The translations under genes were made by a program, and so were the position numbers. Of a stretch of 64,000 bases of DNA, positions 4,691-33,816 are shown one piece after another (within the stretch, counting starts at the first letter, position 1; every line of letters begins with the position of its first letter). This DNA is from Flavobacteriaceae bacterium (GTDB lineage Bacteria; Bacteroidota; Bacteroidia; Flavobacteriales; Flavobacteriaceae). The notes under the pieces were generated by a model. The model was not told the DNA's origin. It saw nothing but the letters and a program-made list of their open reading frames with translations, and ran no database searches. Location of the stretch: contig JADHMP010000010.1 in NCBI GenBank assembly GCA_016779985.1, forward strand, positions 15,481 to 79,480. Reading direction: 5' to 3'.

Positions 4691-6727
4691 ATGAAACGCT
4701 ACATTAATAGAGAATTAAGTTGGTTGGATTTCAATGCTAGAGTCCTTCAAGAAGCAGCTGACCAAAGAGTACCATTATTAGAGCGCCTTCGATTCATTGG
4801 GATTTTTTCTAACAATTTAGACGAATTTTTTCAGGTTCGTTATGCTACAGTAAAACGAATTGCTCAATCTGATAAAACAGGAAAAAAAATCTTTGGAGGG
4901 AATATTGCTTCAGAGCTACTCAATGAAATAACTCAAAAAGTTATCGCGCAACAAAAAGAGAGTAATTTGATTTTAGATGAAATTGAAAAAGCCCTTGCTC
5001 TTGAAGAAATATACTTTATTGATGAGAAACAAGTATTTCCTGAACACGAGTCTTTTCTAAAAGAGTATTTTATTAATCACGTCAGTCCTGCATTAATGAC
5101 TATTATTCTTAAGGAAGATGAGGTGCAAGATCTTAGAGATCACTCTGCTTTTTTGGTTATTAAACTGGTTTTTGAACAAGCAGACTCACAATATGCTTTA
5201 ATAGAAATACCAAAGGAATTAGACCGCTTTGTAGTATTGCCAAAAATAGATGAAAAGCAATACATCATGTTTTTAGATGATGTGATTCGCTTCCATTTTC
5301 AACTCATATTCAACTTTTTTGATTACAGTTCCATTAGCTCCTTTATGATCAAAGTGACTCGAGATGCTGAGTTAGATATGGAGGGAGATGTCTCTAAGAG
5401 CTATGTCAATAAAATTATAGAAAGTGTAAGGGATCGAATTTTAGCCGAACCAGTTCGTCTTGTGTATGATAGTGGTATTGAAAAGGATATGCTTCAACTT
5501 TTAAAACACAAACTTGAAATTGATTCTACAGACAGTTTGATTCCTGGAGGGCGTTATCATCATAGAAGAGATTTTATGAAATTTCCCAATCTACACCGGC
5601 AAGATTTAAAATATAAGCAAATAGAACCTTTAGCTATTCCGGGTTTGTCTTTAGAAAAAAGTATTTTTGGAGCTATCGCTAAAAAAGATTTCCTTCTTTA
5701 CACCCCATTTCATAGCTTTTCCTATTTCGTTAAGTTTTTAAGGGAGGCCGCTTTAGATCCAGAAGTAATTTCTATTAAAATTACAATTTATAGACTTTCT
5801 AAAATTTCCAATGTTGTGAGTTCCTTAATCAACGCAGCTAAAAATGGAAAGAAAGTTTTAGTTCAAATTGAATTACAAGCCCGTTTTGACGAGGCGAATA
5901 ACATCAACCATGCAGAGCAATTAGAAGCTGCTGGGGTAAAGCTAATATTTGGTATTCAAGGGCTCAAAGTACATTCTAAAATTGGAGTGATTGAAAAACG
6001 TGTCAATGATAAAATAAAACGATTTGGTTTTATAAGTACAGGAAATTTCAACGAAGATACGGCTAAGGTGTATACAGATTATACTCTTTTCACGTCAAAT
6101 AGAAAATTGCTCAAAGAAGTAAATAAGGTGTTTAACTTTTTAGAAGTCCCTTATAAACTTAAAAAATATAAACATCTAATTGTGTCTCCACACTATAGTG
6201 CCAATACGATAGAACGGTTGATAGATAATGAAATAAAAAACAGGTTAGAGGGTAAAACGAGCGGTATTCAATTAAAGATGAATGCCATAACCAATTATAA
6301 ATTGATAGATAAGTTATATGAGGCAAGTGCAGCTGGGGTTCCCATAAAAATGATTGTAAGAGGCATATGCTGCTTAATTCCAGGAGTGAAAGGGCTAAGT
6401 GAACACATTGAAGTAGTCAGTGTGGTGGATAAATTTCTAGAACATCCACGTGTTTACATTTTTGAAAATGGAGGTGAGCCAAAATATTATATTTCCTCAG
6501 CTGACTTTATGACCCGAAACATAGAAAATAGGGTAGAAGTAGCTGCTCCAATTTATGATCTTGATTTGCAAAATCAAATTCAAGATGTTTTTTCACTTTG
6601 TTGGGATGACAATATCAAGGGAAGACACGTAAATGGAAAAAAGGGGAATCGATTTATTGATAACAAAAAATCAAAAATTCGATCCCAATGGGCAGTTTAT
6701 GAATATTATGAAAAGCGGAGTGAATAG
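4691..6727 (+). CDS. ppk1: Polyphosphate kinase 1
   Basis: 678 aa with N-terminal INRELSWLDFNARVLQEA and an HKD-like segment LKVHSKIGVIE. Adjacent to ppx. Confidence 0.92.
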   Translation: MKRYINRELSWLDFNARVLQEAADQRVPLLERLRFIGIFSNNLDEFFQVRYATVKRIAQSDKTGKKIFGGNIASELLNEITQKVIAQQKESNLILDEIEKALALEEIYFIDEKQVFPEHESFLKEYFINHVSPALMTIILKEDEVQDLRDHSAFLVIKLVFEQADSQYALIEIPKELDRFVVLPKIDEKQYIMFLDDVIRFHFQLIFNFFDYSSISSFMIKVTRDAELDMEGDVSKSYVNKIIESVRDRILAEPVRLVYDSGIEKDMLQLLKHKLEIDSTDSLIPGGRYHHRRDFMKFPNLHRQDLKYKQIEPLAIPGLSLEKSIFGAIAKKDFLLYTPFHSFSYFVKFLREAALDPEVISIKITIYRLSKISNVVSSLINAAKNGKKVLVQIELQARFDEANNINHAEQLEAAGVKLIFGIQGLKVHSKIGVIEKRVNDKIKRFGFISTGNFNEDTAKVYTDYTLFTSNRKLLKEVNKVFNFLEVPYKLKKYKHLIVSPHYSANTIERLIDNEIKNRLEGKTSGIQLKMNAITNYKLIDKLYEASAAGVPIKMIVRGICCLIPGVKGLSEHIEVVSVVDKFLEHPRVYIFENGGEPKYYISSADFMTRNIENRVEVAAPIYDLDLQNQIQDVFSLCWDDNIKGRHVNGKKGNRFIDNKKSKIRSQWAVYEYYEKRSE

Positions 6728-6729
6728 CT

Positions 6730-7623
6730 ATGGAGATAGATAAATATGCAGCGATAGATATTGGTTCAAATGCCGTTAGAATGCTCATTACCAACGTCAT
6801 AAAGATGGAAGGATCGGTCTATTTCAGAAAAAATTCACTAATTCGAGTGCCCATCCGGTTAGGAGAAGATTCATTTACTTCAGGTGAAATCTCTAAAAAG
6901 AACAAAAACCGCCTTATCGACTCCATAAAAGCCTTTAAATTGCTCATGGAAGTCCATAATGTTAAAAATTATTTAGCTTATGCTACTTCGGCGCTTCGAG
7001 AAGCCACCAATGGTCAAAAAGTGGTCAAAGAAATTAAAAAGAAAAGTGACATCAGCATTGAATTGATTGATGGAGCAAAGGAAGCGGCAATTATTTCAAA
7101 CACTAATATTTTTGATCAAGTGTCTATTGAAAAAACCTTTCTTTATATTGATGTAGGTGGCGGGAGCACAGAATTTAGCGTACTTCGAAAAGGAAAAAGA
7201 ATTTGCTCAAAATCGTTTAAAATTGGAACGGTAAGATTACTCAACGAACATGTGAGTCAACAAGTGTGGCTAAGTATCGAAAAATGGATCAAAACGAATT
7301 TAAAAGGGTACAATAAGATTTATTTATTAGGAACTGGAGGCAATATCAATAAACTCCACAAGATGGCCGGTTTAAAGGAAGATAAACCAATAACTTATTT
7401 AATATTCAATGCTTTATATAAAAAGCTAGCTGCCTTCACCTATCAACAACGCATTGTGAAATTAGGATTAAACCCAGATCGTTCAGATGTTATTTTACCG
7501 GCAATGGAGATATACATCAAAGCTTTACGATGGAGCAGGTCTAAAGTTATTTATGTTCCGAAGGTGGGCCTATCTGACGGTATGATTAGAGAAATTGCAA
7601 AAAAAAATGGAATAACACTCTAG
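6730..7623 (+). CDS. ppx: Exopolyphosphatase, Ppx/GppA family (single-domain short form)
   Basis: 297 aa with ASKHA phosphate-1 motif AAIDIGSNAVRMLI and DVGGGSTEF. Starts 2 nt after ppk1. Confidence 0.85.
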   Translation: MEIDKYAAIDIGSNAVRMLITNVIKMEGSVYFRKNSLIRVPIRLGEDSFTSGEISKKNKNRLIDSIKAFKLLMEVHNVKNYLAYATSALREATNGQKVVKEIKKKSDISIELIDGAKEAAIISNTNIFDQVSIEKTFLYIDVGGGSTEFSVLRKGKRICSKSFKIGTVRLLNEHVSQQVWLSIEKWIKTNLKGYNKIYLLGTGGNINKLHKMAGLKEDKPITYLIFNALYKKLAAFTYQQRIVKLGLNPDRSDVILPAMEIYIKALRWSRSKVIYVPKVGLSDGMIREIAKKNGITL

Positions 7624-8212: not shown

Positions 8213-8887
8213 TTAAAAATCTAAATCAAAGGTTTCTTTCAAATTTTTTAATTCTGGATTAATTTTTACAAGAAAATCATATTTTTCCTGAGCCGTATAA
8301 ACCGTTTCTTCTCTAATCTGTTCACTAATTGAAAGTTCAATTGTTAAGACAAAATTATTTAATTTTTCTCTTAAATAATTTAATATTTCGGGTAGCGCTT
8401 CTTTCAATTCTACTTGGTTAAGTGTATTTGCCACTTGATAGGAAACCACAAAATTATCGTTTAACAACGGTTTCTTAAGCGCAAGAATCGACGCTAGATT
8501 TTGTGATCCTTCTTTGATCTTCAGTTGGGTAAAATTATACCAGTGTTTTTGCAAATCTTCTTCTGTAAAGGTGTTTTTTACTACTTCACTGGGATTATTT
8601 GGAATATTCTTTTGTTGCTCAGCCTGCTTTTTTAATGCTATGCTAGAAATGGATAGACTTGAAACGGCTTTGGCTTGAGTTGGAGCCTCTAAATCTTTTC
8701 TTTTTTCTGAAATTTCGGGCAATTTTTCATCCTCCTTGTCAATTTCTATTAGACCTTTTTCGAATTGAACATTGGGTGCCTCCTCTATCTTTTTTTTGTT
8801 GATTTGTTGAGAAAGATCTACTTTTTCAATTGTGGTAAATTGATCGTAGTAATTATGTGGAATTATGTAGTCTTTTTTTTTTCTCCA
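8213..8887 (-). CDS. dnaX: dnaX tau-specific C-terminal segment, open in the -1 frame relative to the upstream dnaX ORF
   Basis: My hand translation of the minus strand shows this frame is open without a stop from 8887 to the stop at 8213-8215. The ORF-track start at 8722 is only a TTG inside the open frame. This frame equals the upstream dnaX frame shifted by -1 at the A10 run. Confidence 0.65.
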   Translation of the reverse strand, partial: WRKKKDYIIPHNYYDQFTTIEKVDLSQQINKKKIEEAPNVQFEKGLIEIDKEDEKLPEISEKRKDLEAPTQAKAVSSLSISSIALKKQAEQQKNIPNNPSEVVKNTFTEEDLQKHWYNFTQLKIKEGSQNLASILALKKPLLNDNFVVSYQVANTLNQVELKEALPEILNYLREKLNNFVLTIELSISEQIREETVYTAQEKYDFLVKINPELKNLKETFDLDF

Positions 8888-9939
8888 TTAAAATGGAGTG
8901 AAGCTAATTGCATAAGACAAAGCTCAATATGCAAATTTTTATTTTGACTACTCTTAAAACTAATCTCACACTGATTCAACACTTCAAGGGCCTCTAGAAG
9001 CCACTCAGAATTTATATTTTGTGATTGTTTTTCATATTTATCTTGAATGCCTTGCCCAAGTTCTAGAAGAGCATGTGTCTTTTGGTCTTTGACAAAAAGA
9101 AGGGTCCTTAAATGCTCCTCTAATCCCAAAATAAACTGCATCCCGTCAAACCCTTTTTGTCTTAAAGAATTAAAATCAATAAGCACTTCTGGAATTTGGT
9201 GTTTTAAAAATTGATTGACAAAAGAAAAATAAGAGTCAAAATCAAGAACATTTAGGTTTTCGGCTACAAGAGTTGTTTTAAGGTTACCATTAGTAAAACT
9301 AACCATGCGGTCATAAATTGAAAAAGCATCTCTCAAAGCACCGTCTGCTTTTTGAGAAATAAGGAGAAGCGCTTCATCCTCAAATTTCAATTCTTGTTGA
9401 ATGGCAATTTTTGTTAAATGCTGTTGGATATCTAAAACACTTATTCTTTTAAAATCATAAACTTGACAACGAGATAAAATGGTGGGGATAATTTTGTTTT
9501 TTTCTGTAGTGGCTAAAATGAATATTGCGTGTTTTGGTGGTTCTTCTAGAGTTTTTAAAAAAGCATTGAAGGCTGACTGGGTGAGCATATGCACTTCATC
9601 AATAATATACACTTTATGTGTTCCTACTTGAGGAGGAATACGAACTTGTTCGTTAATTTTTCTAATGTCTTCTACTAAATTATTTGAGGCAGCGTCTAGT
9701 TCAAACACATTAAAAGCAAAATCTTCTGACTGATTTCCATTTTGCGAGTTAATTTCTTGGGCAAGTATCCTCGCACAGGAAGTTTTTCCTACCCCTCTTG
9801 GGCCACAAAACAAAAGTGATTGAGCCAGTTGTTGAGTGTCTAAAGCATTTTGGAGGGTTTGCGTAATTGCTTGTTGCCCAACAACTTCTTCAAACCTTGT
9901 GGGTCTATATTTTAAAGCCGAAACGACAAATGATTCCAT
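8863..9939 (-). CDS. dnaX: DNA polymerase III subunit gamma/tau, 0-frame (gamma-like, domains I-III) product
   Basis: MESFVVSALKYRPTRFEEVVGQ, Walker A GPRGVGKTS, DEVHML and ILSRCQ motifs. The likely start is the ATG at 9939, not 9981. It stops 3 codons after the A10 run. Confidence 0.9.
   Translation of the reverse strand: MESFVVSALKYRPTRFEEVVGQQAITQTLQNALDTQQLAQSLLFCGPRGVGKTSCARILAQEINSQNGNQSEDFAFNVFELDAASNNLVEDIRKINEQVRIPPQVGTHKVYIIDEVHMLTQSAFNAFLKTLEEPPKHAIFILATTEKNKIIPTILSRCQVYDFKRISVLDIQQHLTKIAIQQELKFEDEALLLISQKADGALRDAFSIYDRMVSFTNGNLKTTLVAENLNVLDFDSYFSFVNQFLKHQIPEVLIDFNSLRQKGFDGMQFILGLEEHLRTLLFVKDQKTHALLELGQGIQDKYEKQSQNINSEWLLEALEVLNQCEISFKSSQNKNLHIELCLMQLASLHFNGEKKKTT
8873..8882 (-). 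other. A10 homopolymer: candidate slippery site for transcriptional or -1 ribosomal slippage in dnaX
   Basis: The minus strand reads AAT GGA GAA AAA AAA AAG ACT ACA TAA. One extra A fuses the two dnaX ORFs. Confidence 0.6.
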
Positions 9940-10028: not shown

Positions 10029-10322
10029 GCCGCAGGCTATCTTATCGCTTTATTTTTATAAATAGAGAGGAAAGTCCGGACACCGTAGGGCAGCATAGCG
10101 GGTAACACCCGTCGTGACAGCAATGTCATAGGAAAAGTGCAACAGAAAGCAAGTACAGTTTGGCTGTAGTGAAATCAGGTAAACTCTATGCGGTGCAACG
10201 CCAAGTATATCTACAATTAAGAGTGGTCCGTTCAATGTAGAGGGGTAGGCGGCTAGAATGTGTCAGCAATGGCCCATCCAGATAAATGATAAGACTCGAC
10301 AGAATCCGGCTTATCGGCCTGC
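10029..10322 (+). ncRNA. rnpB: RNase P RNA, bacterial type A
   Basis: Universally conserved GAGGAAAGTCCGGAC (P4 5' strand) and ACAGAATCCGGCTTATCGG (P4 3' strand). GGGTAGGCGGCT...AGATAAATGA parallels E. coli M1 RNA. 5' GCAGGC pairs with 3' GCCTGC (P1). Ends are approximate (+/-5 nt). Confidence 0.9.
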
Positions 10323-10859
10323 TTTTTCTTTTGAAAAAAAACTAAAACTATTATTTCCATACACTCTTGAATATTCCCAGTTAGAGTGTCTATCAAATAA
10401 ATATTTTTTTTCGTGCTCAATAATTAGCAACCCCTGCTCTTGAAGTCTTGGTATTGCTTCATCAATTAAAACTTCATATGCCTTATAATCCCAATCATAG
10501 GGAGGGTCAGCAAATATGAAGGTAAAATTTTTGTGACTTTTTGTTAAATATTGAATTACATCACTTTGAATAGTGTGGATTGTAAAATCAAGCACCTCGG
10601 AGGTTTTATCAATAAATGCAATACACTTTCTGTTTTGTTCTACAGCAGTGATCTCAGATACTCCTCTAGAAGCAAATTCATAGCTTATGTTTCCTGTACC
10701 TGAAAACAAATCTAAGACGACAATATTTTCAAAACTAAATTGATGTTGTAAAATATTAAACAAACCTTCTTTGGCTCTATCAGTAGTTGGCCGAACGGGT
10801 AAATTTTTTGGTGCTAGGAGCCGTCTTCCCTTAGCACTTCCCGAAATGATTCGAATCAT
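10311..10859 (-). CDS. rsmD: 16S rRNA (guanine966-N2)-methyltransferase RsmD
   Basis: 182 aa with MIRIISG..KGRRL, the SAM motif LDLFSGTGNIS and the catalytic FADPPY. Confidence 0.85.
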   Translation of the reverse strand: MIRIISGSAKGRRLLAPKNLPVRPTTDRAKEGLFNILQHQFSFENIVVLDLFSGTGNISYEFASRGVSEITAVEQNRKCIAFIDKTSEVLDFTIHTIQSDVIQYLTKSHKNFTFIFADPPYDWDYKAYEVLIDEAIPRLQEQGLLIIEHEKKYLFDRHSNWEYSRVYGNNSFSFFSKEKAGR

Positions 10860-24225: not shown

Positions 24226-26784
24226 CTACTTAGCTGCAGGTTGCTTTTGATCAACAGAAAGTGATAGTTTAGAATCATCATCTGATTTATCAATCAACAG
24301 CGAATCTCCTTCTTTTAATGTATTATCAACAACATTTTCTGCTACTAAATCTTCTATGTATTTCTGAATGGCTCGGTTTAGTGGACGCGCTCCATATTTA
24401 TTATCAAACCCTTTTTCGGCAAGAAAGTCTTTTGCGGCGTCAGTTATTGTAACGTCATAACTTAATTTTTGAATACGAATGATAACCTTGTCGAGTTCAA
24501 TATCTACAATTTTTCGGATGTCTTTTTTATCAAGTGCATTAAATATAACGATGTCATCCACACGATTTAAGAATTCAGGAGTAAACGTTTTCTTTAATTC
24601 CTTATTAATAATACCCTTTTCTATATCAGTAGATTGCGCTTTTTGAGAGGCAGTTTCAAAACCCACGCCAGTTCCAAAATCTTTGAGTTGACGAGCACCA
24701 ATGTTAGACGTCATGATAACAATAGTATTTTGGAAATTTACTTTCCTACCTGAGCTATCGGTCAGAAACCCGTCGTCTAAAACCTGTAGAAGCATATTAA
24801 AAATGTCAGGATGAGCTTTTTCTACTTCATCTAGAAGAATTACTGAATAAGGTCTTCTTCTTACCTTTTCGCTCAGCTGACCTCCTTCTTCATAACCTAC
24901 ATAGCCAGGAGGTGCGCCAATGAGTCTAGAAATTGCAAATTTTTCCATATACTCACTCATGTCGATACGGATCAAATTTTCTTCAGAATCAAAAATTTCA
25001 GAGGCAAGGATCTTCGCAAGTTGTGTTTTACCAACTCCCGTCTGTCCCAAGAAAATAAATGAGCCAATGGGTTTATCAGGATCTTTTAAACCAGCACGAT
25101 TTCTTTGTATGGCTTTCACTACTTTTTCTATGGCCTCTTTCTGACCGATCAATTTCTGACCAATAATAGCTGCTAGTTGAGCTAATTTATTCTTTTCAGA
25201 CTTTACTACTTTATTGACAGGAATGTTTGTCATCATGGACACCACATCTGCAATATGAGTGTCATTGACGGTCACTCGATTTTGTTTAGACTCTTCTTGC
25301 CACCGTTCTTGGGCGTCAATTAGATTTCTCTCTACTCTTTTTTCATCATCTCTGAGCTTGGCCGCTTCTTCATATTTCTGCTTTTTAACTACAGAATTTT
25401 TATTTTCACGAACATCCTCAAGTTGTTGTTCTAATTCTATGATTTCTTTAGGAACACTCATGTTGTTTATATGAACTCTAGATCCTGCTTCATCAAGGGC
25501 ATCTATGGCTTTATCAGGCAAAAATCGATCAGATATATACCGGTTAGTGAGTTCAACACATGCTTTTAATGCCTCATGAGTATAATTTACATTGTGATGG
25601 TTTTCATACCGGTCTTTGATGTTTTCAAGAATTTCAAGAGTTTCTTCTTCTGTAGTTTCTTCCACTAAGACCTTTTGAAAACGTCGCTCTAGAGCTCCAT
25701 CTTTTTCAATATGTTGTCTATATTCGTCAAGGGTAGTAGCACCAATACATTGAATTTCACCTCTTGCTAGGGCAGGCTTAAACATATTTGAGGCATCTAA
25801 ACTGCCTGTGGCACCTCCAGCACCAACAATTGTGTGGATTTCATCTATGAACAAAATAATATTATCGTTTTTTTCCAGTTCGTTCATCACTGCTTTCATG
25901 CGTTCTTCAAACTGACCACGGTATTTAGTGCCTGCCACTAAGCTAGCTAGATCTAAAGTTACTACTCGTTTGTTGTATAATACTCTAGAAACTTTTTTCT
26001 GAATTATCCGCAAAGCAAGTCCTTCTGCTATGGCAGATTTACCAACACCGGGTTCTCCAATAAGTAAAGGATTGTTTTTTTTGCGTCGGCTCAAAACTTG
26101 AGACACTCTTTCAATTTCTTTTTGACGACCAACAACGGGATCAAGTTTATCTTGTTCTGCTAACAATGTTACATCACGACCAAAATTGTCTAAAACAGGT
26201 GTTTTGGTTTTTTTGATTCCTTTTGATTCTGTTGTAGGAACAAATGGATTTTCTTTATTTCCCTCACCCTCATTTTCTTTTTCATCTGGAAATGATGACG
26301 CTGATGGAAGGTCAGAATAATGGTCTTGATCACTTGCTAGCATGACTTTGAATTGTTCCTTAACGATATCATAATCAACGTTTAATTTTGATAATAATTG
26401 CGTTGTAGGATCATTTTCATTTCTTAAAATACAAAGTAAGAGATGAACAGTATTTATAAATTCACTTTGAAAAAGTTTAGCTTCTAAAAATGTTGTTTTA
26501 AGTGCTCTTTCGGCTTGCCGAGTAAGATGCAAGTTTTTTTTCTCGTGCATCCCTTGCTCATTTTCAAGAGCAGCTGGGTTTAAAATTTCAACCTTGCGTC
26601 TTAATTCTTCGAGATTTACTTCTATCGAATTTAAAATTGCAATCGCTTTTCCATCTCCATCCCTCAAAATTCCCAGCATGAGATGTTCTGTACCAATAAA
26701 ATTGTGCCCAAGGCGTAAGGCTTCTTCTTTACTGTAAGCAATCACATCTTTAACGCGAGGAGAAAAATTATCATCCATATTCAA
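24226..26784 (-). CDS. clpC: ATP-dependent Clp protease ATP-binding subunit, ClpC type
   Basis: 852 aa with Clp_N repeats, two Walker A sites ([18 protein letters not shown]) and a UVR-like linker ([13 protein letters not shown]). Confidence 0.9.
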
Positions 26785-26998
26785 TCGTTATTTTTATCCT
26801 TTAGTTTTCAAAAATTAGACCAAAGAATTACCCTATAGCTAATAGACAAAAAAAAAATTATATTTCAAAAGTTAGACGTTAATAATTTTAACCAAAAATA
26901 TCGTTAAAGTGTTAATAATTTATAGAATAAACTAGCTTTTGCATATATTGTTTGATAGTGTAGATGCTTATTTTAGCAGCTATATTCATTTTTAATTT

Positions 26999-33732: not shown

Positions 33733-33816
33733 GGAGAGGTGCCAGAGTGGTAATGGAGCAGATTGCTAATCTGTCAACGTGAAACCGTTGCCAGGGTTCG
33801 AATCCCTGTCTCTCCG
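33733..33816 (+). tRNA. tRNA-Ser (anticodon GCT)
   Basis: Cloverleaf by hand: acceptor GGAGAGG/TCTCTCC, anticodon loop TTGCTAA, long variable arm CAACGTGAAACCGTTGC and T-arm CAGGGTTCGAATCCCTG. No encoded CCA. Confidence 0.92.

Follow-up and report, generated by a model that had tools for sequence, protein, structure and literature searches.

We analyzed a 64,000-nucleotide (nt) stretch of a Flavobacteriaceae bacterium genome (assembly GCA_016779985.1, contig JADHMP010000010.1, positions 15,481 to 79,480; the window) and found that its dnaX gene is carried as two overlapping open reading frames (ORFs) that meet at a run of ten adenines (A10) on the minus strand. The frame of the start codon (frame 0) gives a gamma-like clamp-loader protein, and tau lies in the -1 frame. 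We are highly confident that this is a real, conserved recoding at the dnaX A10 run and not an error or a pseudogene. By its sequence features the gene is a member of a known two-ORF, reversed dnaX class, to which it adds an uncultured marine Flavobacteriaceae lineage. The frame change is probably made for the most part by transcriptional slippage on the run.

At the junction the minus strand reads ...CTC CAT TTT AAT GGA GAA AAA AAA AAG ACT ACA TAA. The frame-0 TAA lies two codons 3' of the run, and the -1 frame, closed by a TAA just 5' of the run (8888-8890), is open from there through the run and on to its own stop. The locus has the following parts:

8863..9939, minus strand: dnaX frame-0 ORF, a 358-amino-acid gamma-like protein with domains I-III (start ATG 9939, stop TAA 8863-8865)
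8873..8882, minus strand: A10 run (T10 on the plus strand) at the gamma/tau boundary, read GAA AAA AAA AAG in frame 0; candidate slippage or shift site
8213..8887, minus strand: open -1 frame (stop 8213-8215, last sense base 8216), with a 219-amino-acid tau extension from 8872
8573..8872, minus strand: tau linker of ~100 residues, predicted to be disordered (AlphaFold predicted local distance difference test [pLDDT] 42-62 for extension residues 1-100), with YIIP and SLSISSI motifs
8216..8572, minus strand: predicted C-terminal globular domain of tau, extension residues 101-219 (AlphaFold pLDDT ~95; PF28557/DUF8439 in relatives)
8883..8898, minus strand: predicted hairpin CTCCAT-TTTA-ATGGAG, 6 base pairs (bp) with a 4-nt loop (-6.5 kcal/mol, z = -2.3)

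Overlap between the two long frames is limited to ~25 nt (8863-8887), a segment at the boundary between domains III and IV that contains the A10 run. The 219 residues that follow the run in the -1 frame begin DYIIPHNYYDQFTTIEKVDLSQQINKKK (DYIIPHNYYDQ...), and the first residues of the linker, as a tryptic peptide, are DYIIPHNYYDQFTTIEK. Translation of an edited sequence with one A added to the run yields a fused protein of 575 amino acids. The start of the 169-amino-acid ORF listed at 8213-8722 is codon 51 of the -1 frame, an internal TTG. The original prediction had described a 358-amino-acid ORF ending at an A10 run, a -1 frame open from 8887 to 8213 with 219 further residues, an internal TTG as the start of the listed ORF, and a fusion of about 575 amino acids; this description is correct in every detail.

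Runs of A10 or T10 occur twice in the window against ~1.6 expected by chance (window G+C content, 35%). The dnaX run is thus unremarkable when taken alone; its placement and its exact conservation in relatives exceed chance. Among the 42 homopolymer runs of at least 8 nt in the window, it is the sole one at a frame junction, and the other 41 break no gene. The second A10 of the window (26848-26857) is outside open frames of at least 100 amino acids, beside the end of a minus-strand frame of 853 codons (24229-26787).

The 358-amino-acid part is unambiguously the DnaX clamp-loader body. It matched the Pfam families DNA_pol3_delta2 (4.6e-35) and DNAX_ATPase_lid (3.1e-11), the model TIGR02397 dnaX_nterm (E = 6e-107), and domains I-III of E. 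coli tau/gamma in the PDB (E = 1e-74). Full-length DnaX models extended into the second part when the fused 575-amino-acid protein was used, with PRK05563 covering residues 10-551 and the Bacteroidota-type PRK14971 matching in two stretches. The fused protein was also colinear in alignment with 13 uninterrupted tau relatives through the junction, SLHF(N/D)GEKKK(G/D)-(Y/F)(I/L)IP. Both the models and this colinearity bear out the placement of the junction at the domain III/IV boundary that had been proposed from the sequence.

In the alignment with uninterrupted tau, the linker is poorly conserved except for the GEKKK(D/G)-(Y/F)(I/L)IP and SxLS(L/I)SSI motifs. The C-terminal domain of the extension is well conserved among relatives. 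A Pfam-A search with the 219-amino-acid extension returned no match, PF28557/DUF8439 being present only in precomputed annotations of relatives' ORFs, and matches in a PDB sequence search with a full-length profile were limited to domains I-III. A Foldseek search with the C-terminal model gave weak matches (best E = 0.047). Three of the four targets with E <1 and probability >0.5 were DnaA domain I or DciA, and 2AYA was absent among the 50 matches listed. DnaA domain I, DciA, and domain V of DnaX share a type-II KH fold (Marsin et al. 2021, PMC8216460). The modeled C-terminal domain may therefore be the equivalent of tau domain V with a type-II KH fold, an assignment that is tentative because no Foldseek match fell below E = 0.001. 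A run of eight adenines is also present in the linker (8790-8797, minus strand), 75 nt 3' of the A10 run, where CAACAAAAAAAAGAT encodes INKKKI; the KKK is found in the close relatives L001 and L005 as well, and slippage at this second run would truncate tau.

A protein search with the fused sequence was used to identify relatives. Every close relative (99% to 78% identity) is 358-361 amino acids long, and full-length proteins of 560-590 amino acids were found at 55% identity or less only. The closest named genome among the matches listed is a Flavobacteriaceae metagenome-assembled genome (80% identity). Fifteen loci were fetched for six clusters of 358- or 359-amino-acid proteins (78-96% identity) from Tara, ENA, JGI, Logan, and NCBI assemblies. 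All 15 have GGAG-A10-G followed two codons later by the frame-0 stop, and in all 15 the -1 frame is open for 219-243 amino acids and ends ...NPELKNLK(E/D)TFDLD(F/L). The linker is highly divergent among these loci, with indels that are multiples of three. Synteny is shared with the window and consists of an rsmD-like methyltransferase gene, dnaX, miaE, ppx, and ppk.

The exact 358-amino-acid sequence of the window is on record, and all 15 members listed for its 90% cluster (n = 28) are 358 amino acids long. More than 100 contigs, from five sources (NCBI, JGI, ENA, Logan, and Tara), carry this product and its cluster. In a metagenome junction scan in which the run length was left free (8-13 nt), 20 of 20 dnaX junctions were exactly A10, with at least 12 flank variants. 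The single non-A10 match of the scan (L105, 1381-1411, ATGGAG-A9-TAAAGGGTATATAATT) has flanks unlike those of dnaX junctions and looks like a chance match. The tau frame has 0 stops in the first 50 weakly conserved linker codons versus 1-7 in the other frames, and substitution counts by codon position in the linker have a weak third-position bias (L014 was not included in either count). Because this bias is weak, the argument that the linker is coding rests on the absence of stops and on the in-frame indels.

The window's relatives are found in three states, namely A11 with tau fused, A10 with tau split into the -1 frame, and A11 with tau split into the +1 frame. The fused state is that of the nearest uninterrupted genes (L100 and L101), which have the same synteny and flanks and keep tau in frame with A11. 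The +1 state is that of a sister lineage (L014-L017; four assemblies, three protein variants, 95-96% identity), which reads GAAG-A11-C and in which loss of the G after the run places tau in the +1 frame. The original prediction had proposed an alignment with relatives as a check, with an uninterrupted gene lacking the run as the outcome that would undo it. The split survives this comparison, and the nearest uninterrupted relatives (~54% identity) are not free of the run but have it as A11.

Two explanations would do away with recoding altogether. If the assembly had lost one base in the homopolymer, the true genome would be A11 and tau an ordinary uninterrupted ORF. One added A does restore the 575-amino-acid ORF, more distant relatives do have natural A11 in-frame alleles, and homopolymers are a classic source of error. 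The same error would, however, have to recur in all of the fetched loci and six clusters, on the >100 contigs from five sources, and at each of the 20 junctions found with run length free, although assemblies of the same kinds resolve A11 in L014-L017 and L100/L101 and none of the other 41 long runs in the window breaks a frame. We regard an assembly error as practically excluded. The choice that had been left at the outset, between obligatory slippage and a 1-nt error, is thereby resolved in favor of obligatory recoding: A10 and the split frames are shared by every relative examined down to 78% protein identity, in many independent Illumina-era assemblies. A truly split or decaying gene would instead yield separate polypeptides, the second from an internal start such as TTG 8722, or would leave the C-terminal part as a pseudogene remnant, with no covalent tau in either case. 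A separate downstream ORF is indeed annotated in every relative, and the A11/+1 lineage has an ATG in the tau frame just 5' of the run. Yet in all lineages the open tau frame extends right back to the run, with the deficit of stops given above, and the first start varies by lineage, so that the called ORFs are 169, 113, 180, 123, 105, and 84 amino acids long; in several lineages the called start would remove the SLSISSI motif or part of the 119-amino-acid domain. The junction peptide GEKKK(D/G)(Y/F)(I/L)IP is conserved with uninterrupted tau, and the C-terminal domain is well conserved. In the Pol III holoenzyme, moreover, tau functions only if its C-terminus, which binds the polymerase and the helicase, is covalently linked to the clamp-loader body, which counts against two separate products. 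A split or decaying gene is therefore very improbable, if slightly less so than an assembly error.

The arrangement itself has been known since 2013. Antonov et al. 2013 (Nucleic Acids Research 41:6514, PMC3711429) reported 17 dnaX genes from 12 genera as two adjacent ORFs with a -1 transition, in which the ORF for domains I-III ends just past a poly-A run (A10 in nine). The taxa include Flavobacterium johnsoniae, F. psychrophilum, Cytophaga hutchinsonii, Capnocytophaga ochracea, Chlorobi, and Coraliomargarita. In the dnaX passages of that paper, transcriptional realignment is inferred from the analogy with Thermus, with no experimental test of dnaX. Atkins et al. 2016 (PMC5009743) restate the reversed class in ribosomal-frameshifting terms in their dnaX passages and give a Chlorobium candidate with E. 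coli-like stimulators. Two Flavobacterium loci examined here (L039 and L040) read A10-GTTGAGCAAT, identical to Figure S3 of Antonov et al. (PMC3711429). The window gene shares with this class a tau C-terminus in an overlapping -1 ORF and the need for recoding to obtain tau. It has a DnaX ORF that stops just after a poly-A run, a tau-homologous ORF in the -1 frame, and conservation across species; its lineage is outside the gene set of the 2013 dnaX passages. Toggling of the register within a clade, the near-equal frequency of the two registers in our sample, and a hairpin adjacent to the run on its 5' side may be additions to the dnaX passages of both papers; of these, the toggling and the hairpin could be of interest to specialists.

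Run length and register were compared across 80 Bacteroidota loci (L020-L099). A run of at least 9 nt was present at the boundary in 57 of the 80, and it was exactly A10 in 50 of these. Tau is in frame 0, the layout seen in Thermus, in 31 of the 57 run-bearing loci, and the gene is split in the other 26, with a frame-0 stop 1-5 codons after the run; the 80 loci are an arbitrary sample among the matches listed, and 31:26 should not be taken as a census. Nearly all loci with tau in frame (30 of 31) have a -1 stop 0-3 codons past the run, within one codon in 27. Of the split loci, 24 have tau in the -1 frame and two (L041 with A9 and L059 with A10) have it in the +1 frame. The run starts at any codon position and is followed by G, T, or C in the 57 run-bearing loci, and by G in 20 of the 26 that are split. 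The two registers follow taxonomy in part. The split register was found in all Flavobacterium and in most Chryseobacterium, Halpernia, and Myroides loci of the sample. Fused genes with A10 were found in many loci of the marine Flavobacteriaceae Kordia, Flagellimonas, Maribacter, and Aquimarina, as well as in Pedobacter, Mucilaginibacter, and Dyadobacter. Bacteroidales loci of the sample have no run at the boundary. Three loci (L072, L079, and L097) have an in-frame interruption of another kind.

Standard decoding of the A10 message would give the 358-amino-acid gamma-like subunit with domains I-III. Tau, consisting of domains I-III, the disordered linker of ~100 amino acids, and the C-terminal globular domain, would be the product of a fraction of expression events, those in which the -1 frame is entered at the run. 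We infer that this entry takes place at transcription, and its efficiency and any role of a hairpin are put forward on the same footing. RNA polymerase would realign the rA tract of the growing transcript with the dT10 template and add one A, and the resulting A11 mRNA, translated normally, would read ...GEKKK-DYIIPH... through to 8213. Messages with A12 or A9 would give a second short product, ending ...GEKKKKRLHNST or ...GEKKRLHNST. The nascent-RNA hairpin at 8883-8898, on the 5' edge of the run, might assist, in a geometry resembling that of a terminator: as we propose it, only the rA:dT hybrid would be left holding the transcript, so the RNA could shear back by one base. DNA-level phase variation, in which replication slippage would maintain A10 and A11 subpopulations, was considered as the main route to tau and rejected: all assemblies agree on A10 as the consensus, and rare DNA variants are not something on which an essential gene can rely.

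Transcriptional slippage is the probable main route to tau mainly on comparative grounds. Both shift directions and several run lengths occur among close relatives, which fits an RNA polymerase that yields a spread of message lengths. A fixed -1 shift at a heptamer would not tolerate toggling registers, whereas a spread of run lengths would. One added A leads to tau in the split genes and to an immediate gamma stop in the fused genes, a pattern that fits insertion-biased slippage as in Thermus. Slippage on a 9-nt run in dnaX was described for Thermus thermophilus (Larsen et al. 2000, summarized in PMC5009743), and no context element is described for that gene in the dnaX passages of the summary. 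The window and Thermus genes have in common a long A-run (at least 9 nt) at the domain III/IV junction with GGAG directly 5' of it (GGGAG-A9 in Thermus), nearby stops in the alternative frames, and two products with a common N-terminal part. They differ in run length (9 nt in Thermus, 10 nt in the window) and in register. In Thermus, tau is in frame 0 and slippage makes gamma; in the window, gamma is in frame 0 and slippage must make tau, so that the Thermus-type register, absent here, is that of the 31 fused loci of the sample. This inversion of polarity relative to both Thermus and E. coli, in which the genomic frame encodes gamma and tau is reached by a -1 shift or an extra A, had been proposed before and was confirmed by translation and alignment.

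The alternative is programmed -1 ribosomal frameshifting of the E. coli type, in which the P- and A-site tRNA-Lys slip on A_AAA_AAG of a homogeneous A10 mRNA to give tau and ribosomes that do not shift give gamma. The window gene shares with E. coli dnaX the gene, the boundary, the in-phase A_AAA_AAG, and a gamma stop right after the site. The heptamer is in the correct phase in the whole clade, the run is followed by G in 20 of the 26 split sampled loci, and the SD-like (Shine-Dalgarno-like) GGAG lies just 5' of the site. Atkins et al. 2016 frame the reversed dnaX class in this way, with the Chlorobium candidate as their case (PMC5009743). The stimulators seen in E. coli are, however, lacking in the window. 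Whereas E. coli dnaX has a downstream stem-loop, the window is without one a few nt 3' of the heptamer, its sole downstream structure (-5.9 kcal/mol) beginning 23 nt past the run. Across 64 loci, structure 3' of the run was neither conserved nor enriched: the median locus ranked at the 66th percentile of controls from the same gene, and just 5% of loci fell into the lowest decile. The stimulatory SD in E. coli dnaX is spaced ~10 nt from its site; GGAG in the window ends 4 nt before A_AAA_AAG, which is the wrong spacing, and the element is lost in the sister lineage, where it reads GAAG (L014-L017). Flavobacteriia also make little use of SD pairing. Polarity is reversed relative to E. coli, and it is the 10-nt run that is conserved, exceeding what a heptamer needs, with T or C after it in many loci. 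Finally, several lineages require a +1 change (L014-L017, L041, and L059), and runs of 9, 11, or 12 nt occur among close relatives. On balance, ribosomal frameshifting is unlikely to be the principal route.

The 3' end of the window hairpin abuts the first A of the run with 0-nt spacing, and its 3' arm holds the SD-like GGAG. Across the 64 loci, the 32 nt 5' of the run fold at the median 6th percentile relative to same-gene control windows. A hairpin ending 0-1 nt before the run is present in 16 of 33 dereplicated upstream sequences, clusters that are not fully phylogenetically independent, versus 13% of control windows (binomial P = 1.3e-6; Kolmogorov-Smirnov P = 1.7e-9). The abutting hairpins of different families are of unrelated sequence. 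In most Flavobacteriaceae the same 3' arm pairs with a 5' arm displaced by one codon, and L027 has a double change in its hairpin from A-U to C-G. In the window's own clade the stem is preserved despite a variable loop, with pairing in one variant retained through G-U. The hairpin may be new because it is absent from the dnaX passages of PMC3711429 and PMC5009743. An intrinsic terminator was considered as an explanation for the hairpin and rejected, as A's and not T's follow it on the sense strand, and the other strand has T's before it, not after.

A precedent for such a structure is the Roseiflexus IS630 element, in which a nascent-RNA stem-loop stimulates slippage on a T5C5 motif with deletion of 1 nt (Penno et al. 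2015, summarized in PMC5009743). Both have a hairpin directly 5' of the slippage motif in terminator-like geometry. The Roseiflexus motif is heteropolymeric and its event a deletion, whereas the window motif is a homopolymer and the productive event would be a 1-nt insertion; the Roseiflexus hairpin has 6 G+C-rich bp, whereas that of the window has 6 mixed bp (-6.5 kcal/mol).

Several points weigh against slippage as the main route and against a part for the hairpin in it. A literature search turned up no RNA data and no experimental test of mechanism for any Bacteroidota dnaX. The window has A_AAA_AAG in phase for an E. coli-type -1 shift, and this, together with the G after the run in most split loci, means that ribosomal frameshifting could contribute or even dominate. 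Proteomics cannot tell the two routes apart, as both give tau with one and the same sequence (GEKKKD...). With 6 bp the hairpin is small, and neither the A11/+1 sister lineage nor about half of the dereplicated lineages have it. Because the stem runs through conserved codons, the conservation of the hairpin may be due in part to constraint on the protein, and the incomplete independence of the 33 clusters reduces the force of its enrichment. The published stem-loop case, as summarized in PMC5009743, is a deletion on a heteropolymeric motif and not an insertion on a homopolymer.

With these points set against its enrichment, a functional stimulatory role for the hairpin is conceivable, with the odds somewhat against it. 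A broader proposal, which we hold slightly more doubtful still, is that the conserved unit in Bacteroidota dnaX would be a terminator-like module of hairpin and A10 tract that drives insertion slippage at high frequency, with a nearly neutral register that flips by 1-nt indels. Such a module would yield a fixed mixture of message lengths, and the genomic register would for that reason be nearly neutral; close relatives would switch time and again between tau in frame, gamma in frame with a -1 change, and gamma in frame with a +1 change. If true, an essential replication protein would routinely be made from a "wrong-frame" gene, and dnaX would become the first cellular housekeeping gene with hairpin-stimulated insertion slippage on a homopolymer.

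Tau is essential: through it the clamp loader is coupled to both the polymerases and the helicase. As it can be obtained here only by a change of frame, recoding must be frequent and reliable. For annotation, the ORF of the 358-amino-acid product and the "hypothetical" ORF that follows it belong together as a single dnaX gene with two products, in this and in many Flavobacteriia, Cytophagia, and Sphingobacteriia genomes, and should carry no pseudogene or assembly-error flag. With the comparative data, the long-standing question of whether dnaX recoding in bacteria other than E. coli and Thermus is transcriptional or translational can be put to a direct test in a relative that can be cultured, such as Flavobacterium johnsoniae.

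Other features were identified at and near the locus. In one sister-lineage contig (L014, ENA ERZ23796817 NODE_639, 6213-7086), polyphosphate kinase is called in two pieces of 101 (PP_kinase_C) and 580 amino acids. Elsewhere it is one gene of ~680 amino acids, and the break in L014 may be a frameshift or an assembly problem. A bacterial RNase P RNA of class A is encoded on the plus strand of the window at 10029-10329 (Rfam RF00010, 200.7 bits, full length). Its gene sits between dnaX and the rsmD-like methyltransferase gene and is divergent from dnaX. Three mechanically called ORFs (10056-10235, 10253-10420, and 10258-10443) are almost certainly spurious because they overlap this RNA. A single tRNA gene of 84 nt with a long arm is present on the plus strand at 33733-33816 (Rfam RF00005, 55.7 bits) and is unrelated to the dnaX junction.

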